64,000 nt of DNA, from NCBI GenBank assembly GCA_965655095.1, contig OZ296648.1, forward strand, positions 54,374,001 to 54,438,000. Reading direction: 5' to 3'. Under the pieces are notes generated by a model. The model was not told the DNA's origin, did no database searches, and worked only from the letters and a program-made list of their open reading frames with translations. This document shows, piece after piece, positions 1-62,024 of this stretch. The translations under genes were made by a program, and so were the position numbers. Position 1 is the first letter of the stretch, and each line of letters begins with the position of its first letter. The stretch comes from Haplodiscus bocki. Its lineage: Eukaryota.

Positions 1-137
1 TCCTGGTTGGTCTGCGTTCTCTGAAGTCACAAAAATGAAGGTATGTTAGGATTACGAACTAGCGCAAAAATTTTCCTGAACATACTCCAAGAAACCTGCA
101 CTACAAGCGTTCGCAAATTATAATCATCGTTGTGAAA
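1..137 (-). pseudogene. Adenain-type protease pseudogene, copy 1 (5' part only, cut by window edge)
   Basis: Same sequence as the 5' part of copy 2 (..FVTSENADQPG). Confidence 0.7.
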
Positions 138-169
138 CGATTCTCGTCGGTCAGCTTCGAAAATTAATT

Positions 170-1385
170 TTAAAACAGAAAAAGACTCTTTGAGACTCTT
201 TGGTTGGAATAAAAAAAATCATTGAAGCATTTTTTTTAACAAGAAAAACCACTCAGGTATTGAATGCCAAAACCTTCTGAAAGAGCAATCTGAAATTGAT
301 GCGTCGGTAAACTCGTGATTGGGTAATCTTGTGATGCTTGCTGAGTACTGATAAGAAACAACACCAGCAGAAAAAGATTTGAATAATCGCAAAAAGCAAT
401 GCAATGACCATGATTCCCGGACGAAAGAGCTTCTAGAGTATTCAAGTAGATCTTTTCGTCCGTAAGCATTGTCAGCGGTTTACCAACGAAAGGGTACTCA
501 TTACTAAAAACGGTGGCACTGTTCAACCCAAACTTTTGGCAGTGAAATTGCGTCGTTCGTTTAGCGCGGAGGAATCCAATGATTTTTGTCATTGAGAGAA
601 CTAATTTTCTTATAGGCTGTTCCGTGAAAATGTGTTTTTGGTAACAATTATGTGCATTAGAAGAAAGTAAAAAAGCTTTTGGTATTGTTTCAGTTTAACT
701 ACACAATGCTGGCATCTTGGTAAGCGTAGTCTCAACGGAAATGTGCACAATGTCTGCAACTATCGCTTTGCCCAAATACTAATTTGCTAAGGTATTGCCA
801 AGTTTGTTATTTTCTGCTTCATTGTCAAAAAGCAAGGCGATTCCCGGCCTGAGGCTCTGAAAGGAAATTCGCAAAGCAACTCCACTCTAGATGTTTGTTC
901 CAGCAAAAACATCTACAAATTTTTGAACGAAAATCAGCACTGATAAACTGTTGCTTTCCGTATGAAAGGTGATTCTGTGAAAAAATTGGTTCCGATTCCT
1001 AAGAATTTCCCTTTGGTTCCCTAAAAGTTTCTTTGTGTTCCTGGTTGTGAAAACTGCTGTTTCAGTAAAAACCTTGTTTGTTTAGTTTCCGTAAGCAGAG
1101 GAAGATTTCATCCCACTTGCCCTTATAATGCAACGACAAAAAAAACAACAAATGGAGCGCGCTCGTCGAATATTCTGGCGAAATGCTGTTGGCAGGAGTT
1201 GTGGCGTTGTAAGCGGGGTCTATTCCATCTGGTTTGACGCTTTATATTCTAGTTCCAGGTCAAGGTTTTTTAGATCAATAGAATTGGTTCAATCGGCTGC
1301 AACTCTGAACTCCAGTGTTAGACAATTGGAATATGAAGGGGGCCAAACTTTTGCTCGAAGGATGTATCCAAAGCGATCAGTAGAA
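170..1385 (-). pseudogene. Polinton-type major capsid protein pseudogene, copy 1 (5'-truncated)
   Basis: Frameshift-stitched translation LIALDTSFEQKFGP..TLEFRVAAD.TNSIDLKNL..ETIPKAFLLSS..PIRKLVLSMTK..TTQFHCQKFGLNSATVFSNEYPFVGKPL..IYLNTLEALSSGNHGH..LLVLFLISTQQASQDY..EFTDASIS. This follows the Polinton double-jelly-roll MCP pattern (EF.V..D..FIDL..Y; NPF.FQ.F.L; FDLT). Many stops and indels. Confidence 0.85.
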
Positions 1386-1650
1386 AAACTGCTTCCCGTG
1401 CTCCATTTCGACGATGAACAAGGCTGATTTGCTGTAAATAATTGACAGATGTGCGTCGATATGCGTTAACACAACCAAACAATGGATGAGCGAGAGACTC
1501 CAACTGAAAGTAGATCACTATGGGAAAAAACCAAGGTGATGCTATTCTTTAAATTCGACTTCAAGCAAAGTGAAAAGTTGCGACACAAGAATGTACCGGA
1601 GGATATTGCGATACCCTTTTCTATGAGACAAGAATGAGTAGAACCGCAGA

Positions 1651-2385
1651 TTAAATAAAATGAAACTCTTGGCTATCGTCCACTGGCAATAAGTCCACGT
1701 CGATATCGCTCTCGGCCTGCTTCAATACTCATGGGTACAAAACATTTATCAAGGCAGCGGAAAACGTTTTGTTTGGTAAATTGGTGTTTCCAAGCGTGGC
1801 CGAAATTCAACGGCAGTGAAACTTTCCGTTCATATAATGCGCTAGGACATTGCGATTCGGACATGTGTGGGAGTTTGATAGATTTCGCTGACTGTCGCAG
1901 CAGGCGACAAAGAGCAGGGGTCCTGAAGAATACGTATGTTTTATAGTAAATATGAGGAGTCCATATTGGTGACTTTGGTAGAAATGACGATCCACATATC
2001 GGTTCAAATGTAACAAATCTAACATCAATCTATTAAGTGGTCCAATAACCAACAAATTCGGGACGCTCCGAAAACGTGTAGGCTAATGGAAAAATTGGCA
2101 ACGATTGCGATAAATTTGAATGTGAGACCCTAGCTCCATAAACGGTTTGCATGTGCTATCGTCGAAAAAAAGGTGCTTTTTTTGTTTATATGGCGTGATA
2201 ACATCAACTTTTGCCACACATTTTAATTTCCGAGCAGTTTAATTTACTTTCTCCGTAACCAAGCTAAGGAGACGAGAGCTTAAACCCAAATTAAAAGGAA
2301 GCAAAACTCGTTGTTGCTTAAATCTTGTCATTTGTTTAATTTTCTCGAACAATATTTCTAATTGGACCGACTCTAGTTGCTTCAT
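1651..2385 (-). pseudogene. Uncharacterised Polinton gene C pseudogene (representative; one copy per unit)
   Basis: Stitched across copies: MKQLESVQLEILFEKIKQMTRFNQQRVLLPLNLDLRSPFVSLVTEKVNY..KLKCVAKVDVITPY..PKFPLAYTFSERPEFVGYWTTY..SSFLPKSPIWTPHIYYKTYVFFRTPALCRLLRQSAK..ALYERKVSLPLDFG..ALINVLYP, then an acidic tail. The ATG lies 4 nt after the gene B stop. Confidence 0.55.
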
Positions 2386-2389
2386 TGTC

Positions 2390-3146
2390 CTATTGCTTGA
2401 CCGAACCCTCGCCGTACCAAAGTTTCAATAGAAATAGGTTTCCACTGGCATAGACAGCTCCGAAAACTGTATCAAAGTCAGATTAAAAGGATTAGTTCTG
2501 TTCGAATGCGTAATTGACTTTAGAAAATGATATTCTTTCCCCCGCTTTGTTTACGTTTGAGATTTGATACCGTGCTGTATCAACAACCACCTGTACCTGC
2601 CTCAGTTCAGTCATCTCCACTATCTCTATGTTTCCAGTCTTAACTTTTAGCCATCTAAAAACTAAATCAAATATGTGAAGTTTACGTCAAATATGGCCTT
2701 GAGCCATACTCAAACTGGAACATCCACATGTGTCCGACTGATCAAATTTTCTTCTGAGGCCCGCTTTCACTCAGACTTGTTCGGAACACCTTCTGTAGAA
2801 TCAAAGTCAAACACGCGAATACCGTTCATTTGTGCTAGGAAGCTGCATCGGAAGCAAAGAGGACGGAATTAGGAAATTGGCCGACTTTACATCATTTACA
2901 AGACTTTATGGTGAGAAGGGGCAAAGTCAAAACATTAAAAATCAAGCGGATTTCTCACAACTTTAGAACATTTCTACGTGGACGCATATGCAAATTGCGT
3001 TTGTAATCTGAATCAAGTTTACTAATATTCCTATTCTTCTTTCTAAATGTATACTTTAAAGTGCAACAGAGGCTTTTGCTTCCACAAAGTGTTTTGAACA
3101 AAAGATTTTTCAGAAAGGTTATTCAAAAGATTGAAAATTAGAGAAT
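2390..3146 (-). pseudogene. Uncharacterised Polinton gene B pseudogene (representative; one copy per unit)
   Basis: Stitched: ..IFACLTLILQK..SLSESGPQ.KI.SVGH.WMFQFEYGS.PY.TQT..LDFRRLT..TGNIEIVEMTELRQVEVVV..VGAVYASGNLFLMKLWYGKSSVKQ*. Packed between the protease and gene C; could be two genes. Confidence 0.5.
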
Positions 3147-3159
3147 AAACAGAAATCAA

Positions 3160-3558
3160 CTTAAATATTTGCGAAAAAGGAACTCTTCTTCAATAAAAAA
3201 TGGGACACAAATACAGTCTAAACACATATTGCGCAATCAAAATGAAAAAAAAAGTTCACATAAATGGGAAGATAAATATTGCAATGAATCTTTCATGGGT
3301 TAGGACACTTCAAGTCGACAAAAGAAAGACGATTGCAAACTTCTTCCCATAGTGTAATTGGTAATTCAAGTAGGTCCCAGATAGGTATTTGTATTGTCGG
3401 TTGCACAGAAGTAGCCGATGACGTCCTGGTTGGTCTGCGTTCTCTGAAGTCACAAAAATGAAGGTGTTAGGAATACGAACTACCGCAAAAATTTTCCTGA
3501 ACGTACTCCAAGAAACCTGCACTACAAGCGTTCGCAAATGATAATCATCGTTGTCAAA
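3160..3558 (-). pseudogene. Adenain-type (C5-like) cysteine protease pseudogene, copy 2
   Basis: Stitched across copies: DNDD..KFLGV...NFPL..PNTFIIVTSDKADQPGSH[R]LLLCN.NNKYLFG/DLLVLPITLCKHVCDRL..MKEPLQKVSSHLCGLFCFY/IAHYVF. His, Asp, oxyanion Gln and Cys occur in adenain order over ~130 aa, directly downstream of MCP. Confidence 0.82.
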
Positions 3559-3590
3559 CGATTCTCGTCGGGCAGCTTCGAAAATTAATT

Positions 3591-4818
3591 TTAAAACAGA
3601 ACAAGACTTTCTTTGAGACTCTTTGGTTGGAATCAAAAAAATCATTGAAGCATTTTTTTAACAAAGAAAACCACTCAGGTATTGAATGCGAAAACCTTCT
3701 GAAAAAGCGATCTGAAACTGATGCGTCGGTAAACTCGTGATTGGGTAATCTTGTGATGCTTGCTGAGTACTGATAAGAAACAACACCAGCACAAAAAGAT
3801 TTGAATAAACGCAAAAAGCAATGCGATGGCCATGATTCCCAGACGAAAGAGCTTCTAGAGTATTCAAGTAGATCTTTTCGTCCGTATGCCTTGTCAGCGG
3901 TTTACCAGCGATAGGGTACTCATTACTAAAAACGGTGGCACTGCTCAACCCAAACTTTTGGCACTGAAATTGGGTCGTTCGTTTAGCGCGGAGGAATCCA
4001 AAGATTTTTGTCATTGAGAGAACTAATTTTCTTATAGGCTGTTCCTTGAAAATGTCTTCGTGGTCCCAATTATGTGCATTAGAAAGTAAAAAAGCTTTTA
4101 GTTTTGTTTCAGTTTAACTACACAATGCTGGCATCTTGGTAAGCGTAGTCTCAACGGAAATGTGAACAATCTCTGCAACTATCGCTTTGCCCAAATACTA
4201 ATTTGCTAAGGTATTGCCAAGTTTGTTATTTTCTGCTTCATTGTCATAAAGCAAGGTGATTCCCGGCCTGAGGCTCTGGAAGGAAATTCGCAAAGCAACT
4301 CCACTCTAGATGTTTGTTCCCGAAAAAAACAACTCCTACAAATTTTTGAACGACAATCAGCACTGATGAACTGTTGCTTTCCGTCTCTTTCTGTATGAAA
4401 GGTGATTCTGTGAAAAAAATGGTTCCGATTCCTCAGAATTTCCCTTTGATTCCCTAAAAGTTTCTTTGTATTCCTGGTTGTGAAAACTGCTGTTTCAGTA
4501 AAAACCTTGTTTGTTTAATTTCCGTATGCAGAGGAAGATTTTATCCCACTTGCCCTTATAATGCAATGACAAAAAAACAACGAATGGAGCGCGTTTGTCG
4601 AATAATCTGGCGAAATGCTGTTGGCATGAGTTGTAGCGTTGTAAGCCGAGTCTGTTCCATCTGGTTTGGCACTTTTATATTTTAGTTCCAGGTAAAGGTT
4701 TTTTAGATCAATAAAATTGGTTCAATCGGCTGCAACTCTGAACTCCAGTGTTCGACAGTTGGAATATGAAGGGGGCCAAACTTTTGCTCGAAGGATGTAT
4801 CCAAAGCGATCAGTAGAA
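3591..4818 (-). pseudogene. Major capsid protein pseudogene, copy 2
   Basis: Paralog of copy 1; ORF fragments 3658-4014 and 4703-4951. Confidence 0.85.
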
Positions 4819-6445
4819 AAACTGCTTCCCCTGCTCCACTCCGACGATGAACAAGGCTGATTTGCTGTAAATAATTGACAGATGCGCGTCGATATGCGTT
4901 AACACAACCAAACAATGGATGAGCGAGAGACTCCAACTGAAAGTAGATCACTATGGGAGAAAACCAAGGTGATGCTATTGTTCAAATTCGACTTCAAGCA
5001 AAGTGAAAAGTTGCGACACAAGAATCTACCGGAGGATATTGCGGTACCCTTTTCCATGAGACAAGAATGAGGAGAACCGCAGATTAAATAAAATGAAACT
5101 CTTGGCTATCGTCCACTGGCAATAAATCCACGTCGATATCGCTCTCGGCCTGCTTCGATACTCATGGGTACAAAACATTTATCATTATCAATGCAGCGGA
5201 AAACGTTTTTTTTTGGTAAAATAGTGTTTGCAAGCGAGGCATTTGGCCGAAATCCAAAGGCAGTGAAACTTTCCGTTCATATAATGCGCTAGGACATTGC
5301 GAATCGGACATGTGTGGGAGTCTCATAGATTTCGATGACTGTCGCAGCAGGCGAAAAAGAGCAGGGGTCCTGAAAAATACGTATGTTTGATAGTAAATAT
5401 GAGGAGTCCATATTGGTGACTTTGGTAGAACTGATGATCCACATATCGGTTGAAATGTAACAAATCTAACATCAATCTAATAAGTGGTCCAATAACCAAC
5501 AAACTCGGGACGCTCCGAAAACGTGTAATTTACTTTCTCCGTAACCAAGCTAAGGAGAGGAGAGCTTAAACCCAAATTAAAAGGAAGCAAAACCCTTTGT
5601 TGCTTACATCATGTCATTTGTTTAATTTTCTCGAAAAATATTTTTAATTGGACCGACTCTAGTTGCTTCATTGTCCTATTGCTTGACCGAACTCTCGCCG
5701 TACCAAAGTTTCATTAGAAAAAGGCTTCCGCTGGCATAGACAGCTCCGATAATTGTATCAAAGTCAGAATGAAAGGATTAGTTCTCTTCGAATGCGTAAT
5801 TGACTTTAGAAAATGATATTCTTTCCCCCGCTTTGTTTACGTTTGAGATTTGATACCGTGCTGTATCAACAACCACCTCTACCTGCCTCAGTTTAGTCAT
5901 CTCCACTATCTCTATGTTTCCAGTCATAACTGTTAGCCTTCTAAAGTCTAAATCAAATATTTGAAGTTTGCGTCAAATATGGCAATGAGCCATACTCAAA
6001 CTGGAACATCCACATGTGTCCGACTGATCAAATTTTCCTCTGAGGCCCGCTTTCACTTAGACTTGTTCGGAACACCTTCTGTAGAATCAAAGTCAAACAC
6101 GCGAATACCGTTCATTTGTGCTTGGAGGCTGCATTGGAAGCTAGGAGGACGGAATTAGGAAATTGCCCGACTTCGCATCATTTGCAAGACTTTATGGTGA
6201 CAAGGGGCAAAGTCAAAACATTAAAAATCAAGCGGATTTCTCACAACTTTAGGACATTTCTATGTGGACGAATATGCAAATTGCGTTTGCAGTCTGAATC
6301 AAGTTTACTAATATTCCTATTCTTCTTTCTAAATGTATACTTTAAAGTTCAACCGAGGCTTTTGCTTCCACAAAGTGTTTTGAACAAAAGATTTTTCAGA
6401 AAGGTTAGTAAAAAGATTGAAAATTAGAGAATAAACAGAAATCAA

Positions 6446-6844
6446 CTTAAATATTTGCGAAAAAGGAACTCTTCTTCAATAAAAAATGGGACAGAAATAC
6501 AGTCTAAACACATATTGCGCAATGAAAATGAAAAAAAAAGTTCACATAAATGGGAAGATAAATATTGCAATGAATCTTTCATGGGTTAGGACACTTCAAG
6601 TCGACAAAAGAAAGACGATTGCAAACTTCTTCCCATAGTGTAATTGGTAATTCAAGTAGGTCCCAGATAGGTATTTGTATTGTCGGTTGCACAGAAGTAG
6701 CCGATGACGTCCTGGTTAGTCTGCGTTCTCTGAAGTCACAAAAATGAAGGTGTTAGGAATACGAACTACCGCAAAAATTTTCCTGAACGTACTCCAAGAA
6801 ACCTGCACTACAAGCGTTCGCAAATGATAATCAACGTTGTCAAA
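6446..6844 (-). pseudogene. Adenain-type protease pseudogene, copy 3
   Basis: Paralog of copy 2. Confidence 0.8.
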
Positions 6845-6876
6845 CGATTCTCGTCGGGCAGCTTCGAAAATTAATT

Positions 6877-8103
6877 TTAAAACAGAAAAAGACTTTCTTT
6901 GAGACTCTTTGGTTGGAAACAAAAAAATCATTGAAGCATTTTTCTAACAAGAAAAACCACTCAGGTATTGAATGCCAAAACCTTCTGAAAGCGCAAACTG
7001 AAATTGATGAGTCGGTAAACTCGTGATTGGGTAATCGTGTGATGCCTGCTGAGTACTGATAAGATCCAACACCAGCAGAAAAAGATTTGAATAATCGCAA
7101 TGAGCAATGCAATGACCATGATTCCGAGACGAAAAAGCTTCTAGAGTATTCAAGTAGATCTTTTCGTCCGTATGCAATGTCAGCGGTTTACCAGCGATAG
7201 GGTAGTCATTACTAAAACAGGTGGCACTGCTCAACCCAAATTTTTGGCAGCGAAATTGGTTCGTTCGTTTAGCGCGGAGGAATCCAATGATTTTTGTCAT
7301 TGAGAGAACTAATTTTCTTATAGGCTGTTCCTTGAAAATGTCTTCTTGGTGCCAATTATGTGCATTAGAAAGTAAAAAAGCTTTTAGTGTTGTTTCAGTT
7401 TAACTACACAATGCTGGCATCTTGGTAAGCGTAGTCTCAACGGAAATGTGAACAATCTCTGCAACTATCGCTTTGCCCAAATACTAATTTGCTAAGGTAT
7501 TGCCAAGTTTGTTATTTTCTGCTTCATTGTCATAAAGCAAGGTGATTCCCGGCCTGAGGCTTGTGAAGGAAATTCGCAAAGCAACTCCACTCTAGATGTT
7601 TGTTCCCGAAAAAAATATCTCCTACAAATTTTTAAACGACAATCAGCACTGATGAACTGTTGCTTTCCGTCTCCTTCTGTATGAAAGGTGATTCTGTGAA
7701 AAAATTGGTTCCGATTCGTGAGAAATTCCCTTTGGTTCCCCAAAAGTTTCTTTGTGTTCCTGAATGTGAAAACTGCTGTTTCAGTAAAAACCTTGTTTGT
7801 TTAATTTCCGTATGCAGAGGAAGATTTTATCCCACTAGCCCTTATAATGCAACGACAAAAAACAACAAATGGAGCGCCTTTGTCGAATATTCTGGCGAAA
7901 TGCTGTTGGCATGAGTTGTAGCGTTGTAAGCCGAGTCTATTCCATCTGGTTTGGCGCTTTTATATCTTAGTTCCAGGTCAAGGTTTTTTAGATCAAAAAA
8001 ATTGGTTCAATCGGCTGCAACTCTGAACTCCAGTGTTAGACAAGTGGAAAATGAAGGGGGCCAAACTTTTGCTCGAAGGATGTATCCAAAGCGATCAGTA
8101 GAA
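6877..8103 (-). pseudogene. Major capsid protein pseudogene, copy 3
   Basis: Fragment 6944-7300 (..LLVLDLISTQQASHDY). Confidence 0.85.
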
Positions 8104-9731
8104 AAACTGCTTCCCGTGCTCCATTCCGACGATGAACAAGGCTGATTTGCAGTAAATAATTGACAGATGTGCGTCGATATGCGTTAACACAACCAAACAA
8201 TGGATGAGCGAGAGACTCCAACTGAAAGTAGATCACTATGGGAGAAAACCAAGGTGATGCTATTGTTTAAATTCAACTTCAAGCAAAGTGAAAAGTTGCG
8301 ACACAAGAACCTACCGAAGAACTTTTCGGTACCTATTTCTATGAGACAAAAATGCGAACCGTGGATTAAATATAAAGAAACTCTTGGCTATCGTCCACTG
8401 GCAATAAATCCACGTCGATATCGCTCTCGGCCTGCTTCGATACTCATGGGTACAAAACATTTATCATTATCAATGCAGCGGAAAACGTTTTTTTTTTTTG
8501 GTAAAATAGTGTTTGCAAGCGAGGCAATTGGCCGAAATCCAAAGGCAGTGAAAATTTCCGTTCATATGATGCACTAGGACATTGCGAATCGGACATGTGT
8601 GGGAGTCTGATAGATTTCGATGACTGTCGCAGCAGGTGACAAAGAGCAGGGGTCCTGAAAAAAACCGTATGTTTTATAGTAAATATGAGGAGTCCATATT
8701 GGTGACTTTGGTAGAACTGATGATCCACATATCGGTTGAAATGTAACAAATCTAACATCAATCTAATAAGTGGTCCAATAACCAACAAACTCGGGACGCT
8801 CCGAAAACGTGTAATTTACTTTCTCCGTAACCAAGCTAAGGAGAGGAGAGCTTAAACCCAAATTAAAAGGAAGCAAAACCCTTTGTTGCTTAAATCTTGT
8901 CATTTGTTTAATTTTCCCGAAAAATATTTTTAATTGGACCGACTCTAGTTGCTTCATTGTTCTATTGCTTGACCGAACTCTCGCCGTACCAAAGTTTCAT
9001 TAGAAAAAGGCTTCCGCTGGCATAGACAGCTCCGATAATTGTATCAAAGTCAGAATGAAAGGATTAGTTCTCTTCGAATGCGTAATTGACTTTAGAAAAT
9101 GATATTCTTTCCCCCGCTTTGTTTACGTTTGAGATTTGATACCGTGCTGTATCAACAACCACCTCTACCTGCCTCAGTTTAGTCATCTCCACTATCTCTA
9201 TGTTTCCAGTCATAACTGTTAGCCTTCTAAAGTCTAAATCAAATATTTGAAGTTTGCGTCAAATATGGCAATGAGCCATACTCAAACTGGAACATCCACA
9301 TGTGTCCGACTGATCAAATTTTCCTCTGAGGCCCGCTTTCACTTAGACTTGTTCGGAACACCTTCTGTAGAATCAAAGTCAAACACGCGAATACCGTTCA
9401 TTTGTGCTTGGAGGCTGCATTGGAAGCAAGGAGGACGGAATTAGGAAATTGCCCGACTTCGCATCATTTGCAAGACTTTATGGTGACAAGGGGCAAAGTC
9501 AAAACATTAAAAATCAAGCGGATTTCTCACAACTTTAGGACATTTCTATGTGGACGAATATGCAAATTGCGTTTGCAATCTGAATCAAGTTTACTAATAT
9601 TCCTATTCTTCTTTCTAAATGTATACTTTAAAGTTCAACCGAGGCTTTTGCTTCCACAAAGTGTTTTGAACAAAAGATTTTTCAGAAAGGTTAGTAAAAA
9701 GATTGAAAATTAGAGAATAAACAGAAATCAA

Positions 9732-10130
9732 CTTAAATATTTGCGAAAAAGGAACTCTTCTTCAATAAAAAATGGGACAGAAATACAGTCTAAACACATA
9801 TTGCGCAATGATAATGAAAAAAAAAGTTCACATAAATGGGAAGATAAATATTGCAATGAATCTTTCATGGGTTAGGACACTTCAAGTCGACAAAAGAAAG
9901 ACGATTGCAAACTTCTTCCCATAGTGTAATTGGTAATTCAAGTAGGTCCCAGATAGGTATTTGTATTGTCGGTTGCACAGAAGTAGCCGATGACGTCCTG
10001 GTTAGTCTGCGTTCTCTGAAGTCACAAAAATGAAGGTGTTAGGATTACGAACTACCGCAAAAATTTTCCTGAACGTACTCCAAGAAACCTGCACTACAAG
10101 CGTTCGCAAATGATAATCAACGATGTTAAA
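9732..10130 (-). pseudogene. Adenain-type protease pseudogene, copy 4
   Basis: Near-identical to copy 3 at +3286. Confidence 0.8.
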
Positions 10131-10162
10131 CGATTCTCGTCGGGCAGCTTCGAAAATTAATT

Positions 10163-11389
10163 TTAAAACAGAAAAAGACTTTCTTTGAGACTCTTTGGTT
10201 GGAAACAATAAAATCATCGAAGCATTTTTCTAACAAGAAAAACCACTCAGGTATTGAATGCCAAAACCTTCTGAAAGCGCAAACTGAAATTGATGAGTCG
10301 GTAAACTCGTGATTGGGTAATCGTGTGATGCCTGCTGAGTACTGATAAGATCCAACACCAGCAGAAAAAGATTTGAATAATCGCAATGAGCAATGCAATG
10401 ACCATGATTCCCAGACAAAAAAGCTTCTAGAGTATTCAAGTAGATCTTTTCGTCCGTATGCAATGTCAGCGGTTTACCAGCGATAGGGTAGTCATTACTA
10501 AAACCGGTGGCACTGCTCAACCCAAATTTTTGGCAGCGAAATTGGGTCGTTCGTTTAGCGCGGAGGAATCCAATGATTTTTGTCATTGAGAGAACTAATT
10601 TTCTTATAGGCTGTTCCTTGAAAATGTCTTCCTAGTGCCAATTATGTGCATTAGAAAGTAAAAAAGCTTTTAGTTTTCTTTCAGTTTAACTACACAATGC
10701 TGGCATCTTGGTAAGCGTAGTCTCAACGGAAATGTGAACAATGTCTGCAACTATCGCTTTGCCCAAATACTAATTTGCTAAGGTATTGCAAAGTTTTTAT
10801 TTTCTGCTTCACTGTCACAAATCAAGGTGATTCCCGGCCTGAGGCTCTGAAAGGATATTCGCGAAGCAACTCCACTCTAGATGTTTGTTCCTGAAAAAAC
10901 ATCTTCCACAAATTTTTGAACGAAAATCAGCACTGATGAACTGTTGCTTTCCGTCTCTTTCTGTATGAAAGGTGATTCTATGAAAAAAAATGGTTCCGAT
11001 TCCTCAGAATTTCCCTTTGATTCCCTAAAAGTTTCTTTGTATTCCTGGTTGTGAAAACTGCTGTTTCAGTGAAAACCTTGTTTGTTTAATTTCCGTATGC
11101 AGAGGAAGATTTTATCCCACTTGCCCTTATAATGCAATGACAAAAAAACAACGAATGGAGCGCGTTTGTCGAATAATCTGGCGAAATGCTGTTGGCATGA
11201 GTTGTAGCGTTGTAAGCCGAGTCTGTTCCATCTGGTTTGGCACTTTTATATTTTAGTTCCAGGTAAAAGTTTTTTAGATCAAAAAAATTGGTTCAATCGG
11301 CTGCAACTCTGAACTCCAGTGTTCGACAGTTGGAATATGAAGGGGGCCAAACTTTTGCTCGAAGGATGTATCCAAAGCGATCAGTAGAA
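10163..11389 (-). pseudogene. Major capsid protein pseudogene, copy 4
   Basis: Fragments 10230-10586 and 11274-11507. Confidence 0.85.
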
Positions 11390-13167: not shown

Positions 13168-13571
13168 ACCTAAATGTGTGCTAAAAAGTAGCAACTCTTC
13201 TTCAATAAAAAATGGGACAGAAAGACAGTCAGCCTTGAAAACATAATGCTCAATAGAAGCAGAAGAGTCCACAAAAATGGATTATTAGCTTTTGCAATGG
13301 TTCTTTCATGGGTTCAGACACTTTAGGTCGACAAATGAAAGACGGTCGCAAACGTGTTTGCATAGTGTGATAGGTAATACAAGTAGGTCCCAAACAGGTA
13401 TTTGTTGTTTCAGTTGCACAGAAGTAGCCGATGACTCCCTGGCTGGTCTGCTTTGTCTGAAGTGACAATAATGAAGGTGTTAGGTTTACGAGCTAGCGGA
13501 AAATTTTTCCTGAGCGTACTCCAAGAAACCTGCACTACAAGCGTTCGCAAATGATAATCATCGTTGTGAAA
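13168..13571 (-). pseudogene. Adenain-type protease pseudogene, copy 5
   Basis: ORF fragments ..NFPLARKPNTFIIVTSDKADQPGSHRLLLCN and ..EPLQKLIIHFCGLFCFY. Confidence 0.82.
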
Positions 13572-13603
13572 CGATTCTCGTCGGTCAGCTTCGCAAATTA
13601 ATT

Positions 13604-16858: not shown

Positions 16859-16890
16859 CGATTCTCGTCGGTCAGCTTCGCAAATTAATT

Positions 16891-40533: not shown

Positions 40534-40563
40534 ACAATTTCGTCGTTCATCTTCGACAATTCA

Positions 40564-43631: not shown

Positions 43632-43661
43632 ACAATTTCGTCGTTCATCTTCGACAATTCA

Positions 43662-46917: not shown

Positions 46918-46947
46918 ACAATTTCGTCGTTCATCTTCGACAATTCA

Positions 46948-49611: not shown

Positions 49612-50015
49612 ACAAAATGTTTGAGAAAAAAGCGGCAACTCTTTTTCAATGAAAAATGGGACACAGAGACAGTCAGCCCTAAACACATAATGCGCAATAG
49701 AAACACAAGAGTCCACATAAATGGGAAGATACCTTTTGCAATGGTTCTTTCATGGGTTCAGACACTCCAAGTCGATAAATGGAAGACGGTCGCAAACGTG
49801 TTTGCATAGTGTGATAGGTAATACAAGTAGGTCTCAAAAAGGTATTTGTTGTTTCAGTTGCACAGAAGTAGCCGATGACTTCCTTGTTGGTCTGCTTTCT
49901 CTGAAATGACAATATTGAAAGTGTTAGGCTTACGAGCTAGCGGAAAACTTTTCCTGCATGTACTCCAAAAAACTTGCACTCCAAGTATTCGCACTTCATT
50001 ATCATCGTTGTCAAA
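49612..50015 (-). pseudogene. Adenain-type protease pseudogene, copy 16
   Basis: Equals copy 14 at +6384. Confidence 0.8.
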
Positions 50016-50045
50016 ACAATTTCGTCGTTCATCTTCGACAATTCA

Positions 50046-51169
50046 TTTCAGAATAGAAAAAGACTTTCTTTGAAACTCTTTGGGGCGAAAAAAAAGGTTG
50101 AAGTACTTTTTACCAAGAAAAACATTGACGTACTGAATGCCAAAACGTTCTAGAAGAGCAATCTGAAAAGGATGCATTGGTAAACTCGTGATATAAGTAA
50201 TCCTGCGATGTTTGCTGAGTACTGGTAGGATCCAACACCACCAGTAAATGATTTGAATGATGGCAATCCGCAAAACCATGACCACGATTCCCAAAAGAAA
50301 GAGCTTCTAAAGAAGTAAAGTAGATCGTTTCGTCCGTATCTGTTATCACCTGTTCACCGGCGATGGGGCAGTCGTTACTAAAAACAGTGGTACTGCTCAA
50401 CCCAAACTTTTGGCAGTGAAATAGGGTCTTTCGTGTAGCGCGAAGGAATCCAATAAATTTTGTCATTGCGAGAACTAATTTTCTTATAGGCTGTTCGTTG
50501 AAAATGCCTTCTTGGTGCCAATTATGTACATTAGAAGAAAGCAAAAAAGCTTTTGGTATTGTTTCAGTATAACTACACAATGCGTGCATCTTGGTGAGCG
50601 TAGTCTCAACGGAAATCTAAACAATATCTGCAACTATCAATTTGCCCACATACTATTTTGGTAAGGTATTGCTAAGTTTGTTATCTTCTGCTTCAAAGTC
50701 AAAAATCAAGGTGATTCCCGGCCTGCCGCTCCGAAAAGATATTCGCAAAGCAATTCCACTCTAGATGTTTGTATCTGAAAAAACATGTGCTACAAATTTT
50801 TGAAAAAAAAATAGAACCGATGAATTCTTGCCTTCCGTCTCTTTCTGTATGAAAGGTGATTCTGTGAATTAATAGGTTCCCATTCCTAAATATTTCCCCT
50901 GGATTCCCCAAAAGTGTCATTAGGTTCCTGGTTGTGAGAAATTTCTGTTTCAGTAAAAGCTTTGTGTGCTTAATTTCCGTTTGCAGAGCAAGATTTTATC
51001 CAACTTGCCCTTAAATTGAAATGACAAAAAAACAACGAATGGAGCGCGTTTGTCGGAAATTCTGGCGTAATGCTGTTTGCATCAGTTTTAGCGTTGTGAG
51101 GCAAATATGTACCATCTGATTTGCTATTTTTGCACTTTAGCTCCAGGTAAATGTTTTGTAGATCAACAA
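50046..51169 (-). pseudogene. Major capsid protein pseudogene, copy 16
   Basis: Equals copy 14 at +6384. Confidence 0.86.
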
Positions 51170-52899
51170 GATTACTTCGACGAGGAACAACGCTGATTTG
51201 CTGTAATTAATTGAAAAATGTGCGTTGACATTCGTTAACATAACCAAACAATGGCTGAACGAGAGACTCCAAGTAAAAGTAGATCACTATGGGAGAAAAC
51301 CAAACTGATGCTATTTTGTAAATTCGACCTCAAGCAAAGTGAAAAGTTGCCACACAAGAACCTACCGAAAAAGTTTTTGGTACCTTTTTCCATGAGACAA
51401 GAACGAGAACCGTGGATTCAATATAATGAAACTCTTGGCTATCGCCCACTTGCAATAATTCCACGTCGATATCGCCCTCGGCCTGCTTCAATACTCATGG
51501 GTACAAAACATTTATCAATGCAGCGGAAAACAATCTTTCGGTAAAGTAGTGTTTCCAAGCGAGGCATTCGACCGAAATCCAACGGCAGTGAAACTTTCCG
51601 TTCAAATATTGCTCCACGACATTCCGAATCGGACATGTGTCGGAGTTTGATAGATTCCGATGACTGTCGCAGCAGGCGACAAAGAGGAAAGGTCCTGACG
51701 AAAACTTATGTTTTATTGTAAATATGAGGAGTCCATATTGGTGATTTTGGTAGAAATGATGATCCAAAAATCGGTTCAAATGTAACAAATCTAACATCAA
51801 CTCGGGACATCCGAAAACGAGTAGGGTAAGGAAAACTTTGGTTATGATTGCGAAAAATTTTGAATGTGAGACCCTAGCTTCATAAACGGTCTGCAAGTGC
51901 TATCATAGGAAAGGTGCTTTTGTGTTTATATGGCGTGATAACATCAACTTTTGCCACATATTTTAAGTGCCGAGCAGTGTAATTTACTTTCTCCGCAACC
52001 AAACTAACGAAAGGGGACCTTAGATCCAAAATCATAGGAAGTAAAACCCTTTGTTGGTTAAATCTTGTCAGTTGTTTAAATTTCTCAAACAGTATTTCTA
52101 ATTGGACCGAATCTAGTTGCTTCACTGTCCTATTGCTTGACCGAACTCTTGCCGTACCAAAGTTTCATCAGAAATAAGTTTTCGCTGCCATAGACAGCTC
52201 CGACCGTTGAATCAAAGTCAGATGAAAAGGATTAGTTCTCTTTGAATGCGTAATTGACTTCAGAAAATGATACTCTTTCCCCCGCTTTATTTACGTTTGA
52301 GATTTGATAACATGTTGCATCGAGAACCACCTCTACTTGCCTCAGTTCAGTCATTTCCACTATCTCTATGTTTCCAGTCTTAACTATTAGCCTTCTAAAG
52401 TCTAAATTAAATATTTGAAGTTTGCGTCAAATATGGCCTTGAGCCATACTCGAACTGGAACATCCACATGTGTCCGATTGATCAAATTTTCATCTGAGGC
52501 CCGCTTTAACTCAGACTTGTTCAGAACATCTTCTATAGAATCAAAGTCAAACACGCGAAAATCGTTCAATTGTTCTTGGAAGCTTCATAAAAGGCAGGAA
52601 TGATTGAATTACGAAATTGGCTGACTTTGCATCATTTACAAGACTTTAGGAGGAGGAGGGGCAAAGAGAATATGTAAAAATCCAGCCGATTTCTTACAAC
52701 TCTAGGACCCCAGCTACTTGGAAGAAAGTGCAAATTTCGTTTGCAATCTGAATCAAGTTTACTAACGTTTCTAATTCTCTCCCCAACTGTATACCCTAAA
52801 CTTCAACCTAGGCTTTCCTTTACCAAATGTGTTTTCAACAAAAGTATTTTTAGAAAAATTACCCAAAAACTCGAAAACTAGCACACTAACGGGAATCAA

Positions 52900-53302
52900 A
52901 CTAAATGTTTGAGAAAAAAGCAGCAACTGTTTTTCAAAAAAGTATGGGACACAAAGACAGTCAGCCCTAAACACAAAATGCGCAATAGAAACACCAGAGT
53001 CCACATAAATGGGAAGATACCTTTTGCAATGTTTCTTTCATGGGTTCAGACACTCCAAGTCGATAAATGCAAGACGGTCGCAAACGTGTTTGCATGATGT
53101 GATAGGTATTACAAGTAGGTCCCAAACAGGTATTTGTTGTTCCAGTTGCACAGAAGTAGCCGATGACTTCCTTGTTGGTCTGCTTTCTCTGAAATGACAA
53201 TATTGAAAATGTTAGGCTGACGAGCTAGCGGAAAACTTTTCCTGCATGTACTCCAAAAACTTGCACTCCAAGTATTCTCACTTCATTATCATAGTTGTCA
53301 AA
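52900..53302 (-). pseudogene. Adenain-type protease pseudogene, copy 17
   Basis: Paralog of copy 12. Confidence 0.8.
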
Positions 53303-53332
53303 TCAATTTCGTCGGTTATCTTCGAGAAATCA

Positions 53333-54465
53333 TTTTAGAATAGAAAAAGACTTTTTCTGAAACTCTTTGGGGCGAAAAGAAAAAATGGTTGAAGAACTTT
53401 TTACCAAGAAAAACATTCACGTATTGAATGCCAAAACGTTCTGGAAGAGCAATCTGAAAAAGATGCATTGGTAAACTCGTGATATAGGTAATCCTGCGAT
53501 GCTTGCTGAGTACTGGTAGGATCCAACACCACCAAGAAATGATTTGAATGATGGCGATCAGCAAAACCATGAACCCGATTCCCAAACGAAAGAGCTTCTA
53601 AAGAAGTAAAGTAGATCGTTTCGTCCGTATCTGTTGTCAACGGTTGACCAGCGATGGGGCCGTCGTTACTAAAAACAGTGGTACTGCTCAACCCGAACTT
53701 TTGGCAGTGAAATGGGGTCGTTCGTTTAGCGCGAAGGAATCCAATAATTTTTGCCATTGCGAGAACTAATTTTCTTATAGGCTGTTCGTTGAAAATGCCT
53801 TCTTGGTGCCAATTATGTACATTAGAAGAAAGTAAAAAAGCTTTTGCTATTGTTTCAGTATAACTACACAATGCTTGCATCTTGGTGAGCGTAGTCTCAA
53901 CGGACATCTAAACAATGTCTGCAATGATCAATTTGCCCACATACTATTCTGGTAAGGTATTGCTAAGTTTGTTATCTTCTGCTTCAATGTCAAAAATCAA
54001 GGTGATTCCGGGCCTGCGGCTCTGAAAAGGTATTCGCAAAGCCACTCCACTCTAGATGTTTGTTCCTGAAAAAAAACATGTGCTACCAATTTTTGAATGA
54101 AAAATAGAACCGATGAATTCTTGCCTTCCGTCTCCTTCTGTATGAAAGGTGATTCTGTGAATTAATTGGTTCCTTTGATTCCGAAAAATTTCCCTGGATT
54201 CCCTTAAAGGGTCATTAGGTTCCTGGTTGTGAGAAACTTCTGTTTCAGTAAAAGCTTTGTGTGCTTAATTTCCGTTTGCAGAGCAAGATTTTATCCAACT
54301 TGCCCTTATAATGCCATCGCAAAAAAAACAACGAAGGGAGCGCGCTTCTCAAAAATACTGGCGTAATGCTGTTTGCATCAGTTTTAGCGTTGTGAGCCAA
54401 ATATGTACCACCTGATTTGTTAATTTTGAACTTTAGCTCCAGGTAAATGTTTTGTAGATCAACAA
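53333..54465 (-). pseudogene. Major capsid protein pseudogene, copy 17
   Basis: Fragment 53401-53907 (SVETTLTKMQAL.SYTETI..TTPFHCQKFGLSS). Confidence 0.88.
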
Positions 54466-54712
54466 GACTACTCCGACGATGAACAACGCTGATTTGCTGT
54501 AATTAATTGAAAGATGTGCGTTGACATTCGTTAACATAACCAAACAATGGCTGAACGAGAGACTCCAAGTAAAAGTAGATCACTACGGGAGAAAAGCAAA
54601 ATGATGCTATTTTTTAAATTCGACTTCAAGCAAAGTGAAAAGTTGCCACACAAGAACCTACCAAAAACGTTTTTGGTACCTTTTTCCATGAGACAAGAAC
54701 GAGAACCGTGGA

Positions 54713-55450
54713 TTAAATATAATGAAACTTTTGGCTAACGTCCACTTGCAATAAGTCCACGTCGATATCGCCCTCGGCCTGCTTCGATACTCATGGGTAC
54801 AAAACATTTATCAATGCAGCGGCAAACAATCTTTCGGTAAAGTAGTGTTTCCAAGCGAGGCATTCGACCGAAATCCAACGGCATTGAAACTTTCCGTTCA
54901 AATATTGCGCCAGGAGATTCCGAATCGGACATGTATCGGAGTTTGATAGATTCCGATGACTGTCGCAGCAGGCGACAAAGAGGAAAGGTCCTGAAGAATA
55001 CGTATGTTTTATAGTAAATTTGAGGAGTCCATATTGGTGATTTTGGTAGAAATGATGATCCAGACATCGGTTCAAATGTAACAAATCTAACATCAACATA
55101 TTAAGTGGTCCAAAAACCAACAAATTCGGGACATCCGAAAACGAGTAGGGTAAGGAAAACTTTGGCTACCATTGCGAAAAATTCTGAATGTGAGACCCTA
55201 GCTTCATAAACAGTCTGCATGTGCTATCGTGGAAAAGGTCCTTTTATTGTTTATATGGCATGATAACATCAACTTTTGCCACACATTTTAATTTCCGAGC
55301 AAGGTAAATTACTTTCTCCGCAACCAAACTAACGAAAGGGGACCTTAGATCCAAAATCATAGGAAGTATAACCCTTTGTTGGTTAAATCTTGTCAGTTGT
55401 TCAAATTTCTCAAACAGTATTTCTAATTGGAACGAATCTAGTTGCTTCAC
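54713..55450 (-). pseudogene. Uncharacterised gene C pseudogene (representative of right-hand subfamily)
   Basis: ORF fragments 55244-55450 and 54735-55067; paralog of 1651-2385. Confidence 0.55.
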
Positions 55451-55454
55451 TGTC

Positions 55455-56209
55455 CTATTGCTTGACCGAACTCTTGCCGTACCAAAATTTGGTTAGAATT
55501 ATGTTTCCGCTGGCATAGACAGCTCCGACCGTCGCATCAAAGTCAGATATAAACGATTAGTTCTCTTCGAATGCGTATTTGAGTTTCGAAAATGATATTC
55601 TTTCCCCCGCCTTGTTTACGTTTGAGAAATGATAACATGCTGTATGAACAACCACCTGTACCTGTCTCAGTTCAACCATCTCCACCATCTCTATCTTTCC
55701 AGTCTAAATTGTTAGCCTTCTAAACTTTAAACTAATTTTTTAAAGTCTGCGTCCAATATGGCTTTGAGCCATACTCAAACTGGAACATCAGGATGTGTTC
55801 GTCTGAACATAATTTGCTCTGAGGGCCGCTTTCACCCAGATTTGTTCAGAACATCTTCTATAGAATCAGAGTCAAACACGCGAAAATCGTTCAATTGTTC
55901 TTGGAAGCTTCAATAAAGGCAGGAATGATCGAATTAGGAAATTGGCTGACTTTGCATCATTTACAAGACTTTACGAGGAAGAGGGGCAAAGAGAATATGT
56001 AAAAATCCAGCCGATTTCTCACAACTCTAGGAACCCGGCTACGTGGACGAAAGTGCAAATTTCGTTTGCAATCTGAATCAAGTTTACTAACGTTTCTAAT
56101 TTTCTCCCCAACTGTATACTCTAAACTTCAACCTAGGCTTTTCTTTACAAAATATGTTTTCAACAAAAGAATTTTTAGAAAAATTACTCAAAAACTCGAA
56201 AATTAGCAT
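55455..56209 (-). pseudogene. Uncharacterised gene B pseudogene (representative of right-hand subfamily)
   Basis: Candidate ATG at 56209 (MLIFEFLSNFSKNSFVEN..) immediately after the protease; paralog of 2390-3146. Confidence 0.5.
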
Positions 56210-56224
56210 ACTAACGGGAATCAA

Positions 56225-56628
56225 ACTAAAGGTTTGAGAAAAAAGCAGCAACTCGTTTTCAATGAAGTATGGGACACAAAGACGGTCAGCCCTAAACACA
56301 TAATGTGCAATAGAAACCAAAGAGTCCACATAATAGGGAAGATACCTTTTGCAATGGTTCTTTCACGGGTTCAAACACTCCAAGCCGATAAATGCAAGAC
56401 GGTCGCAAACGTGTTTGCATGATTTCATAGGTAATACAAGTAGGTCCCAAACAGGTATTTGTTGTTTCAGTTGGACAGAAGTAGCCGATGGCTTCCTTGT
56501 TGGTCTGCTTTCTCTGAAATGACAATACTGAAAGTGTTAGGCTTACGAGCTAGCGGAAAACTTTTCCTGCATGTACTCCAAAAAACTTGCACTCCAAGTA
56601 TTCGCACTTCATTATCATCGTTGTCAAA
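56225..56628 (-). pseudogene. Adenain-type protease pseudogene, copy 18
   Basis: ..EPLQKVSSLLCGLF. Confidence 0.8.
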
Positions 56629-56658
56629 TCAATTTCGTCGGTCATCTTCCAGAATTCA

Positions 56659-57789
56659 TTTCAGAATAGAAAAAGACTTTCTTTGAAACTCTTTGGGGCG
56701 AAAAGAAAAAACGGTTGAAGAATTTTTTACCAAGAAAAACATTCACGTATTGAATGCCAAAACGTTCTAGAAGAGCAATCTGAAAAAGATGCATTGGTAA
56801 ACTCGTGATATAGGTAATCCTGCGATGCTTGCTGAGTACTGGTAGGATCCAACACCACCAGTAAATGATTTGAATGATGGCAATCAGCAAAACCATGACC
56901 ACGATTCCCAAACGAAAGAGCTTCTAAAGAAGTAAAGTAGATCGTTTCGTCCGTATCTGTTGTCAACGGTTCACCAGCGATGGGGCAGTCGTTACTAAAA
57001 ACAGTGGTACTGCTCAACCCCAACTTTTGGCAGTGAAATGGGGTCGTTCGTTTAGCGCGAAAGAATCCAATAATTTTTGCCATTGCGAGAACTAATTTTC
57101 TTATAGGCTGTTCGTTGAAAATGCCTTCTTGGTGCCAATTCTGTACATTTGAAGAAAGTAAAAAAGCTTTTGGTATTGTTTCAGTATAACTACACAATGC
57201 TTGCATCTTGGTAAGCGTAGTCTCAACGGAAATCAAAACAATATCTGCAACTATCAATTTGCCCACATACTATTTTGGTAAGGTATTGCTAAGTTTGTTA
57301 TCTTCTGCTTCAATGTCAAAAATCAAGGTGATTCCTGGCCTGCGGCTCTGAAAAGATATTCGCAAAGCAACTCCACTCTAGATGTTTGTTCCTGAAAAAA
57401 AAACATGTGCTACAAAGTTTTGAATGAAAATTAGAACCGATGAAATCTTGATCTCCGTCTCCTACTGTATGAAAGGTGACTCTGTGAAACAATTGGTTCC
57501 TTTGATTCCTAAAAACTTCCCCTGGATTCCCTTAAAGTGTCATTAGGTTCCTAGTTGTGAGAGACTTGTTTCAGTAAAAGCTTTGTGTGCCTAATTTCCG
57601 TTTGCAGAGCAAGATTTTATCCAACTTGCCCTTATAATGCCATCGCAAAAAACAACGAATGGAGCGCGCTTCTCAAAAATACTGGCGTAATGCTGTTTGC
57701 ATCAGTTTTAGCGTTGTGAGGCAAATACGTACCATCTGATTTGCTATTTTTGCACTTTAGCTCCAGGTAAATGTTTTGTAGATCAACAA
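56659..57789 (-). pseudogene. Major capsid protein pseudogene, copy 18
   Basis: Fragment 56727-57266, 179 aa open (GKLIVADIVLISVETTLTK..TTPFHCQKLGLSS..DYLYHEFTNAS). Confidence 0.88.
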
Positions 57790-59302
57790 GACTACTTCGA
57801 CGATGAACAACGCTGATTTGCTGTAATTATTTGAAAAATGTGCGTTGACATTCGTTAACATAACCAAACAATGGCTGAACGAGAGACTCCAAGTAAAAGT
57901 AGATCACTATGGGAGAAAAGCAAAGTGATGCTATTTTTTAAATTCGACTTCAAGCAAAGTGAAAAGGTGCGACACAAGATCCTACCGAAGAATTTTTCGG
58001 TACCTTTTTCTATGAGACAAGAATGAGAACCGTGGATTAAATATAAAGAAACTCTTGGCTATCGCCCACTTGCAATAAGTCCATGTCAATATCGCCCTCG
58101 GCCTGCTTCAATACTCATGGGTACTCATTTTGGTAGAAATGACGATCCACATATCGGTTCAAATGTAACAAATCTAACATCAACATATTAAGTGGTCCAA
58201 AAACCAAAAAGTTCGGGACATCCGAAAACGAGTAGGGTAAAGAAAACTTTGGCTACGATTGCGAAAAATTTTGAATGTGAGACCCTAGCTTCATAAACGG
58301 TCTGCATGTGCTATCGTGGAAAAGGTGCTTTTATTGTTTATATGGCGTGATAACATCAATTTTTGCCAAACATTTTAATTTCCGAGCAAGGTTTTTTGCT
58401 TTCTCCCTAACCAAACTAACGAAAAGAGACCATAGATCCAAATTCAAAGGAAGCAAAACCCTTTGTTGGCTAAATCTTATCATTTGTTTAATTTTCTCAA
58501 ACATTATTTCTAATTGGAGCGACTACAGTTGCTTCATTGTCCTATTGCTTGACCGAACTCTTGCTGTACCAAAACTTGGTTAGAATTATGTTTCCGCTGG
58601 CATAGACAACTCCGACCGTTGCTTCAAAGTCAGATATAAAAGATGAGTTCTCTTCGAATGCGTAATTGAGTTTCGAAAATGATATTCTTTCCCCCGCTTT
58701 GTTTACGTTTGAGAATTGATAACATGCTGTATGAACAACCACCTCTACCTGTCTCAGTTCAACCAACTCCATCTTTCCAGTCTAAATTGTTAGCCTTCTA
58801 AAGTCTAAACAAAATTTTTGAAGTCTGCGTCCAATATGGCTTTCAGCCATATTCAAACTGGAACATCAGGATGTGTCCGTCTGAACAAATTTTGCTCTGA
58901 GGCCCTCTTTCACCCAGACTTGTTCAGAACATCTTCTATAGAATCAAAGTCAAACACGCGAAAATCGTTCAATTGTTCTTGGAAGCTTCATAAAAGGCAG
59001 GAATGATTGAATTAGGAAAATGGCTGACTTTGCATCATTTACAAGACTTCACGAGGAAGAGGGGCGAAGAGAATATGTGGAAATCCAGCCGATTTCTCAC
59101 AACTCTAGGAACCCAGCTACGTGCACGAAAGAGCAAATTTCGTTTGCAATCTGAATCATGATTAATAACGTTTCTAATTCTCTCCCCAACTGCATACTCC
59201 AAACTTCAACCTAGGCTTTTCTTTAAAAAATGTGTTTTCAACAGAAGAACTTTTAGAAAAATTACTCAAAAATTCGAGAATTAGCATACAAACGGGAATC
59301 AA

Positions 59303-59706
59303 ACAAAATGTCTGAGAAAAAAGCGGCAACTCTTTTTCAATGAAGTATGGGACACAGAGACAGTCATCCCTAAACACATAATGCGCAATAGAAACACAAG
59401 AGTCCACATAAATGGGAAGATACCTTTTGCAATGGTTCTTTCATGGGTTCAGACACTCCAAGTCGATAAATGCAAGACGGTCGCAAACGTGTTTGCATGA
59501 TGTCATAGGTAATACAAGTAGGTCCCAAACAGGTATTTGTTGTTTCAGTTGCACAGAAGTAGCCGATGACTTCCTTGTTGATCTGCTTTCTCTGAAATGA
59601 CAATATTGAAAGTGATAGACTTACGAGCTAGCGGAAAACTTTTTCTGCATGTACTCCAAAAAACTTGCACTCCAAGTATTCGCACTTCAATATCATCGTT
59701 GTCAAA
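59303..59706 (-). pseudogene. Adenain-type protease pseudogene, copy 19
   Basis: ..EPLQKVSSHLCGLLCFY. Confidence 0.8.
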
Positions 59707-60864
59707 TCAATTTCGTCGGTCATCTTCGAGAATTCATTCTAGAGTATAAAAAGACTTTCTTTGAAACTCTTTGGGGCGAAAAGAAAAAATGGTTGTAGGA
59801 TTTTTTACCAAGAAAAACATTCACGTATTGAATGCCAAAACGTTCTAGAAGAGCAATCTGAAAAAGATGCATTGGTAAACCCGTGATATAGGTAATCCTG
59901 TGATGCTTGCTGAGTACTGGTAGGATCCAACACCACCAGGAAATGATTTGAATGATGGCAATCAGCAAAACCATGACCACGATTCCCAAACGAAAGAGCT
60001 TCTAAAGAAGTAAAGTAGATCGTTTCGTCCGTATCTGTTGTCAACGGTTCACCAGCGATGGGGCAGTCGTTACTAAAAACAGTGGTACTGCTCAACCCCA
60101 ACTTTTGGCAGTGAAATCGGGTCGTTCGTTTAAGGCGAAGGAATCCAATAATTTTTGCCATTGCGAGAACTAATTTTCTTATAGGCTGTTCGTTGAAAAT
60201 GCCTTGTTGGTGCCGATTATGTGCATTAGAAGAAAGGAAAAAAGCTTTTGGTATTGTTTCAGTTTAACTACACAATGCTGGCATCTTGGTAAGCGTAGTC
60301 TCAACGGAAATGTGAACGATGTCTGCAACTATCGCTTTGCCCAAATACTAATTTGCTAAGGTATTACCAAGTTTGTTATTTTCTGCTTCAATGTCAAAAA
60401 TCAAGGTGATTCCCGGCCTGCGGCTCTGAAAAGATATTCTTAAAGCAACTCCACTCTAGATGTTTGTTTCTGAAAAAAACATGTGCTACAATTTTTTGAA
60501 AGAAAATTAGAACCGATGAATTCTTGCTTTCCGTCTCCTTCTGTATGAAAGGTGATCCTGTGAATTAATTGGTTCCTTTGATTCCTAAAAATTTCCCCTG
60601 GATTCCCTTAAAGTGTCATTAGGTTCCTGGTTGTGAGAAACTTCTATTTCAGTAAACCCTTTGTGTGCTTAATTTCCGTTTGCAGAGCAAGATTTTATCC
60701 AAATTGCCCTTATAATGCTATCGCAAAAAACGAATGGAGCGCGCTTCTCAAAAATACTGGCGTAAGGCTGTTTGCATCAGTTTCAGCGTTATGAGCCAAA
60801 TATGTACCATCTGTTTCGTCAATTTTGCACTTTAATTCCAGGTGAATGTTTTGTAGATCAACAA

Positions 60865-62021: not shown

Positions 62022-62024
62022 TTT

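Follow-up and report, generated by a model that had tools for sequence, protein, structure and literature searches.

The array and its parent element

The DNA analysed here, which we call the window, is a stretch of 64,000 nucleotides from Haplodiscus bocki (GenBank assembly GCA_965655095.1, contig OZ296648.1, positions 54,374,001 to 54,438,000 of the forward strand). The contig, C1 below, measures 198 Mb in a genome of 1.5 Gb. The window is dominated by tandem copies of a unit that carries, on the minus strand, a 5′-truncated capsid gene, a probable protease gene, an intervening stretch and the 5′ part of a polymerase gene (table 1). This array is nested inside one decayed Maverick (or Polinton), an element of roughly 13 kb of which an internal slice is amplified 24-fold. 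It is recognised as a slice of a single element because both flanks continue the Maverick, and because dispersed relatives have the same gene order with the slice unrepeated. To the right of the array lie an ATPase gene, a conserved gene, an integrase gene, a penton gene, a small gene and the 5′ end of the capsid gene, all single-copy and on the minus strand, while the bulk of the polymerase gene is single-copy to the left. An earlier note, made from the letters of the window, had proposed a Polinton origin, and matches to integrase, polymerase, capsid, penton and ATPase support it. The same note had seen a satellite made of the virion-morphogenesis block alone. This description does not hold, as penton and ATPase lie outside the array, the capsid gene is cut and part of the polymerase gene is included; nor is the array free-standing, as the flanks belong to the parent element.

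Comparison of the window with itself by BLAST gave 441 matches, none of them inverted, with periods of 3087–3457 bp, and the repeats stop at 60,864–60,870. Eighteen whole units and one partial unit fall within the window and five further units lie upstream, where the array begins about 15.9 kb from the edge of the window. The total is 24 units, head to tail and in one orientation, over about 77 kb (C1:54,358,100-54,434,864), which bears out the earlier description of at least 19 units of 3.1–3.45 kb in an array of at least 61 kb with a single orientation. Pairwise identity among the units is 82–100%. The upstream units are shortened by deletions (1769–3269 bp), and the leftmost unit has a 1.7-kb deletion.

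The array is confirmed as real, and is not a concatenation of dispersed copies by the assembler, the outcome that the earlier note had named as fatal to its claim. A genome search with one unit, in which 40 of 45 candidates were scored, placed every long match of at least 80% identity inside the array interval and found a single locus of this unit. Matches outside the interval were 63–73% identical, and none of the long matches to dispersed copies exceeded about 73%. Public contigs, which are short and come from four runs on two samples of one study (possibly including the sample behind the assembly), hold many divergent copies of the unit with every identity class represented, and two of the contigs listed span a unit junction. 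Mean summed contig depth over a unit of subfamily A, of which there are 16 copies, was 15.5, 13.3 and 20 times that of a single right-flank contig in three runs. Contig depth does not equal copy number, and the ratio of 13–20 serves as a rough check. At 6674–6708 of the window, public contigs have loose ends of at least 255 bases on both sides, which suggests an insertion in a copy or allele that is not in the assembly.

Table 1. Features of the locus, in positions of the window unless a locus handle is given.
Feature	Position	Strand	Evidence or remark
Tandem array, part in window	1..60864	+	Self-comparison; 1-1406 holds the last part of an upstream unit
Unit starts	near 1407, 4840, 8125, 11411, 14850, 18139, 21593, 25046, 28343	+	Self-comparison
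Unit starts, continued	near 31635, 35092, 38381, 41694, 44792, 48078, 51176, 54472, 57796	+	Self-comparison
Subfamily A, 16 units with upstream ones	1..35091 (part in window)	+	Full length about 3.45 kb; mean Kimura two-parameter distance (K2P) 0.072
Subfamily B, 8 units	35092..60864	+	About 135 bp shorter at the junction; mean K2P 0.061
Higher-order repeat	39668..52435	+	6384-bp dimer (3286+3098) present twice, 99.47% identity
Type A junction, example	8090..8125	+	Joins 5′ part of capsid gene to interior of polymerase gene
Type B junction, example	41680..41700	+	Last bases same as start of the insertion at 60860
5′ part of protein-primed DNA polymerase gene, example copy	31635..32500	-	tblastn E 1e-7; upper limit approximate
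Stretch between protease and polymerase	32500..33396		65-68% identical in dispersed relatives
Decayed adenain-like protease gene, example copy	33397..33814	-	tblastn E 1e-11 to 1e-13 to open-frame relatives
Decayed major capsid gene, example copy	33814..35053	-	Residues 24-440 of open-frame relative; frameshifts, stops
Very high-copy dispersed repeat inserted in capsid gene of last unit	60860..61506	-	Internal 128-bp repeats
5′ end of capsid gene, single copy	61474..61644	-	Residues 14-69 of relative
Remnant of a small conserved Maverick gene, between penton and capsid	61756..62108	-	Match to relatives; presumably core-protein-like
Penton (minor capsid) remnant, single copy, outside array	62039..62814	-	tblastn E 7e-43
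Retroviral-type integrase remnant, single copy	62857..63309	-	tblastn E 6e-18; relative matches Pfam rve, E 2e-8
Remnant of a further conserved Maverick gene	63515..63999	-	Match to relatives
Packaging ATPase remnant, just beyond window	L015:329-923	-	Relative E 8e-28; Pox_A32 E 3e-4, slightly under curated cut-off

Gene content of the unit and its flanks

The remnants alone are too decayed to be named directly: 24 frames from three units and the tail, with stops read as X, gave no credible Pfam family, and a 160-residue fragment of the array found no longer homologue among 680 candidates. Since Pfam finds nothing in the array frames, the probes used were open frames that occur naturally in dispersed, less decayed elements. 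In Pfam, the products of these relatives match rve (E 2e-8), DNA_pol_B_2 (E 5e-15), Pox_A32 (E 3e-4) and Peptidase_C5 (E 0.0016–0.02).

Matches to the capsid gene occur in 24 of 24 copies. The earlier note was right to place a decayed major capsid gene in each unit, except that the gene lacks its 5′ end throughout, the matches beginning at residue 24 in A or about residues 52–59 in B. A frame from the last copy matches the profile of the capsid family at E 4e-44. The open-frame relative has a capsid of 439 residues with 315 relatives; two of the 120 relatives listed are named 'F54H12.2-like' and come from an acoel. Searched by sequence, the capsid profile found no solved relative, and a fold search was needed. 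The model of the relative (predicted local distance difference test, pLDDT, 85.6) is a double jelly roll that matches the Sputnik capsid (E 6e-17) and that of PBCV-1 (Z 27.5, root-mean-square deviation 3.3, 358 aligned), as well as iridovirus and mavirus capsids. The assignment to a double-jelly-roll major capsid protein, modelled on the relative, holds.

The protease that the earlier note called adenain is a weaker but consistent case. Relatives match Peptidase_C5 at the E values given above, short of the curated cut-off, and in the PDB their only three matches are adenovirus proteases (E 0.37–0.41), with His and Cys aligned. Position and motif fit the adenain type (C5), and we regard the gene as probably adenain-like. 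One of the two genes that the earlier note had left unnamed proves to be polymerase, in the form of the 5′ part of its gene, collinear with dispersed relatives and continued by the remainder of the gene left of the array. Left flank and unit together match the polymerase open reading frame (ORF) of a relative (E 1e-25), itself a match to DNA_pol_B_2 (E 5e-15); the remnant as such has no Pfam match. The stretch between protease and polymerase has no match to any ORF of four less decayed relatives.

Outside the array, the penton of a relative (286 residues, model pLDDT 69.6) matches the fold of the mavirus penton at E 2e-8. No inverted match was found between the flanks, and the ends of the element were not located; in a less decayed relative, which served as a control, a 72-bp inverted match was found. 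Most Mavericks are described as degraded fossils without recognisable terminal repeats (in the part of PMC8097293 consulted). The insertion in the last unit reaches a summed contig depth of up to about 4000 times the flank and has short hairpins near both ends. We take these ends to recall Helentron/DINE elements. A decayed long terminal repeat (LTR) retrotransposon with RNase H and an integrase zinc finger lies upstream of the host element (L012:2852-7580). Less decayed Mavericks of another family (L053:6630-7196 and L068:7152-7559) have, near one end, a gene like that of ribosomal protein S5 together with a long repeat rich in lysine and arginine.

Decay, subfamilies and turnover

Thirteen insertions or deletions (indels), 12 of which are not multiples of three, are common to at least 90% of the 24 copies when set against at least five of six dispersed relatives; the shared frameshifting indels comprise four in the capsid gene and three in the protease gene. 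Differences between A and B in the capsid gene are flat over the three codon positions (0.18/0.17/0.18) and are also even within A and within B, while two open-frame relatives used as a control give 0.19/0.11/0.61. In the protease and polymerase pieces, which are short, the values are noisier, and third positions show no consistent excess between units. Because frameshifts are shared and divergence is equal at all codon positions, the copies evolve as neutral DNA.

The two subfamilies occupy the left (A) and right (B) of the array, and a 163-bp deletion is common to many A units. K2P distances of 0.196 between A and B, 0.47–0.48 between array and dispersed relatives and 0.42 among the dispersed relatives place the A/B split at about 40% of the age of the family. 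Single-copy DNA behind the insertion (61507–61613, 107 bp) is 82–87% identical to A units, which makes the first duplication seem at most as old as the A/B split.

Each subfamily has its own junction. Type A is identical after 16 of 16 A units, with A-rich microhomology of no more than a few bases; type B is identical after 7 of 7 internal B units. Since the last bases of the B junction are those that start the insertion in the final unit, subfamily B likely postdates this insertion. A rolling-circle origin by way of the inserted element is unsupported, as B units retain a few bases of one insertion end only. The farther apart two units lie in the array, the lower their identity (Spearman -0.60 overall, -0.23 in A and -0.50 in B; permutation p 0.0005, 0.023 and 0.007, respectively). 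Some units are mosaic: 10, 11 and 16 have B-like middles and 17 has an A-like start. The two junction types, the mosaics and the 99.5% identical dimer indicate that turnover has been long and is probably continuing, in keeping with the earlier claim of a monomer still turning over. Local homogenisation, subfamilies and higher-order repeats are all present, as in transposon-derived satellites.

Other arrays in the genome

Two further arrays lie inside other Mavericks. One surfaced in a protease search, the results of which did not include the 24-unit array itself, and belongs to another Maverick family (C3:107,541,288-107,557,175; L079, L080). It consists of nine units of 1.77 kb, 90–99% identical, with a 5.29-kb trimer at 98.9%; the slice holds the 3′ part of the capsid gene, the protease gene and the next gene, and the parent element continues on both sides. 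The other (C3:112,908,829-112,930,170; L089-L092) has 13 units of 1.64 kb, 86–99% identical, in which the slice is the ATPase gene with its upstream gene. This array was found by a control search with ATPase; the control searches with integrase, ATPase and polymerase each covered the best 150 candidates and miss arrays of distant families. Among these best 150, seven same-strand pairs were found for polymerase and one for integrase. Six same-strand pairs of polymerase matches, 0.9–7.7 kb apart (C2, C6, C7, C8, C10), suggest two-copy duplications.

Duplications of other kinds were seen as well. One Maverick at C8:77.98-78.0 Mb (L062, L063) has nested duplications with periods of 2982 bp (capsid and protease, 98%) and 5666 bp (integrase to ATPase, 99%). 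At C8:26.04 Mb (L083) and C1:155.98-156.01 Mb (L085-L088), duplications of 968 bp and 9309 bp are 100% identical, either very recent or artefacts of assembly, and a 3169-bp tandem (98%) lies at the end of a Maverick.

The genomic background was sampled in 56 stretches of 10 kb at round positions on C1–C9, a small and systematic sample. Periods of at least 500 were present in 8 of the 56, of which three were dropped as multiples of 83–383-bp units; the remaining five hold tandem units of 1.2–2.6 kb (36.5 of 560 kb), and one of these five is similar to part of a protein-primed polymerase. Eight other stretches carry Maverick-like genes without tandem structure. Because Mavericks and arrays are both common in the genome, some overlap between them is expected. 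Tandem units of 1230, 1727, 2649 and 1317 bp (L100, L115, L123 and L130) are mutually unrelated, and a Pfam scan of two of them gave nothing above cut-off. The stretch C6:90,000,001-90,010,000 (L134) consists entirely of a 1312-bp unit repeated at 99% identity; a 105-residue frame in it resembles DNA_pol_B_2 clusters (Atlas score 0.91, a lead), and this is possibly a young array from another Polinton-type element. That amplification is specific to the capsid gene was considered and rejected, given the ATPase-centred array and the non-Maverick kilobase arrays of the same genome. The capsid content of the array looks incidental.

Origin of the array

We favour, with a probability of about 0.8, an origin by chance tandem duplication in dead DNA, followed by unequal crossing-over and gene conversion; the encoded proteins would have played no part in it. 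A Maverick would have inserted and decayed, as the flanks and shared frameshifts attest. A 3.45-kb slice would then have been duplicated when the 5′ end of the capsid gene was joined to the polymerase gene, either non-homologously or by microhomology; the junction is there to be seen, and the repair route is presumed. Multiplication and local homogenisation of the copies would have produced the observed pattern of identity. The high-copy element would next have inserted in a right-hand copy, and an adjacent second junction would have founded B, an order to which the shared bases point; the dimer would have been duplicated recently. That slices of other Mavericks form arrays, and that 5 of 56 sampled stretches have kilobase tandem units, speaks for this origin. 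Unequal exchange with conversion has been proposed for CRM-derived repeats (in a passage of PMC3648361), and the route is reviewed in the relevant part of PMC6947457.

Several points weigh against this account. The junction has drifted too far for a repair signature to be read. Both junctions break within about 15 bp of each other on the polymerase side, which chance explains poorly; the shared breakpoint would be explained if a copy with the insertion had lost a segment spanning the A junction. Homogenisation could have spread frameshifts after amplification and could hide an older start, and the view that the element was dead before the first duplication rests on a short terminal piece and on distances. 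The background sample, lastly, can neither separate a Maverick-specific rate from the genome-wide rate nor exclude an excess in Mavericks. Such an excess would suit a broader idea that we consider unlikely, namely that Mavericks are satellite nurseries, with arrays seeded above background through a Maverick-linked process or because the host retains them as a small-RNA memory of the virus, and with 2, 9, 13 and 24 copies as successive stages in the birth of macrosatellites from endogenous DNA viruses.

It is improbable that the host keeps the array, either as a source of small RNA against active Mavericks or as a structural repeat of the chromosome. The nearest dispersed relatives are 63–73% identical in DNA and open-frame families about 40% identical in protein, both too distant for base-paired targeting; a single 77-kb locus was found, and the amplified slice differs between arrays. 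These facts outweigh the persistence of the array through about 0.1 substitutions per site per lineage, the capsid genes that are antisense to one strand throughout, and the precedent of long retrotransposon-derived monomers at potato centromeres (noted in part of PMC3648361). Marginally less probable again is amplification by the replication of the element itself, through integration of a defective concatemeric genome or through the polymerase of an active Maverick acting on the slice in trans. Several Mavericks here do have internal arrays or duplications and families with open reading frames coexist, but the copies share frameshifts and show no selection, they are 0–22% apart in a manner graded with position, the unit has no terminal repeat and non-Maverick arrays are common. 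Least probable of all is a copy number inflated by an assembly that strung together haplotypes or dispersed copies: it could draw on the 99.47% identity of the 6384-bp dimer, on two duplications elsewhere that are 100% identical and on the use of short contigs rather than raw long reads, whereas most units are 3–18% apart, the two junction types recur in register, the contigs contain many identity classes, cross junctions and reach 13–20 times the flank depth, and close dispersed copies were not found.

The array, which is most likely neutral, gives no sign of a viral function. Its interest is that parent, both breakpoints and order of ages can all be read off, as is seldom possible with satellites, and that it still lies inside its source element. 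Together with its sister arrays, it offers a dated series of independent origins of satellites with multi-kilobase units within a single animal genome, from which one could measure the frequency with which chance duplications grow. Counts of capsid genes overstate the number of Mavericks in such genomes.

Comparison with known systems

Compared with the Mavericks described in the relevant part of PMC8097293, the host element shares the fossil decay and remnants of polymerase, integrase, ATPase and both capsid proteins, major and minor, and probably of the protease; it differs in that its genes lie on one strand, in an order unlike the two-module layout of vertebrates, and in the 24-fold amplification of an internal 3.45-kb slice.

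The earlier note knew of no Polinton-capsid macrosatellite and held that satellites from transposable elements usually stem from short, non-coding or terminal parts. Satellites from transposon coding regions, Polinton included, have been described, and Polinton-related satellites are already in print; of the nested multi-gene form, no report was found in the literature searched (subscription journals and supplements lay outside the search). The parts of PMC11131425, PMC9026859 and PMC6947457 consulted contain no multi-gene array inside a Maverick. LmiSat34-299 of Locusta (PMC4935994) is similar to Polinton coding sequence and CgiSat52 of Crassostrea (1656 bp; PMC8268682) to Polinton sequence. 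Both have shorter monomers and were recognised by library similarity, and the passages on them describe neither several genes per monomer nor nesting in the parent element. A satellite attached to its transposon is represented by CficCl-61-40 of Chenopodium, which comes from the coding domain of a DNA transposon but is a genome-wide family with a monomer of about 40 bp (passages of PMC7320549).

A parallel in mode of birth is provided by CRM1TR and CRM4TR of maize, arrays that, as described in passages of PMC3648361, were born inside a transposon through an illegitimate junction, grew locally and were homogenised; their parents are LTR retrotransposons and the CRM monomers derive from LTR and untranslated region rather than from a coding core. 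Multi-kilobase monomers are likewise familiar from the 4.7-kb Sobo, the potato centromeric repeats of 979 bp to 5.4 kb and rye E3900 (cited in the same part of PMC3648361), again with LTR retrotransposon parents. Polinton-like satellites and multi-kilobase monomers derived from transposons are therefore known, and what appears to be new here is a multi-gene unit nested in its parent Maverick.

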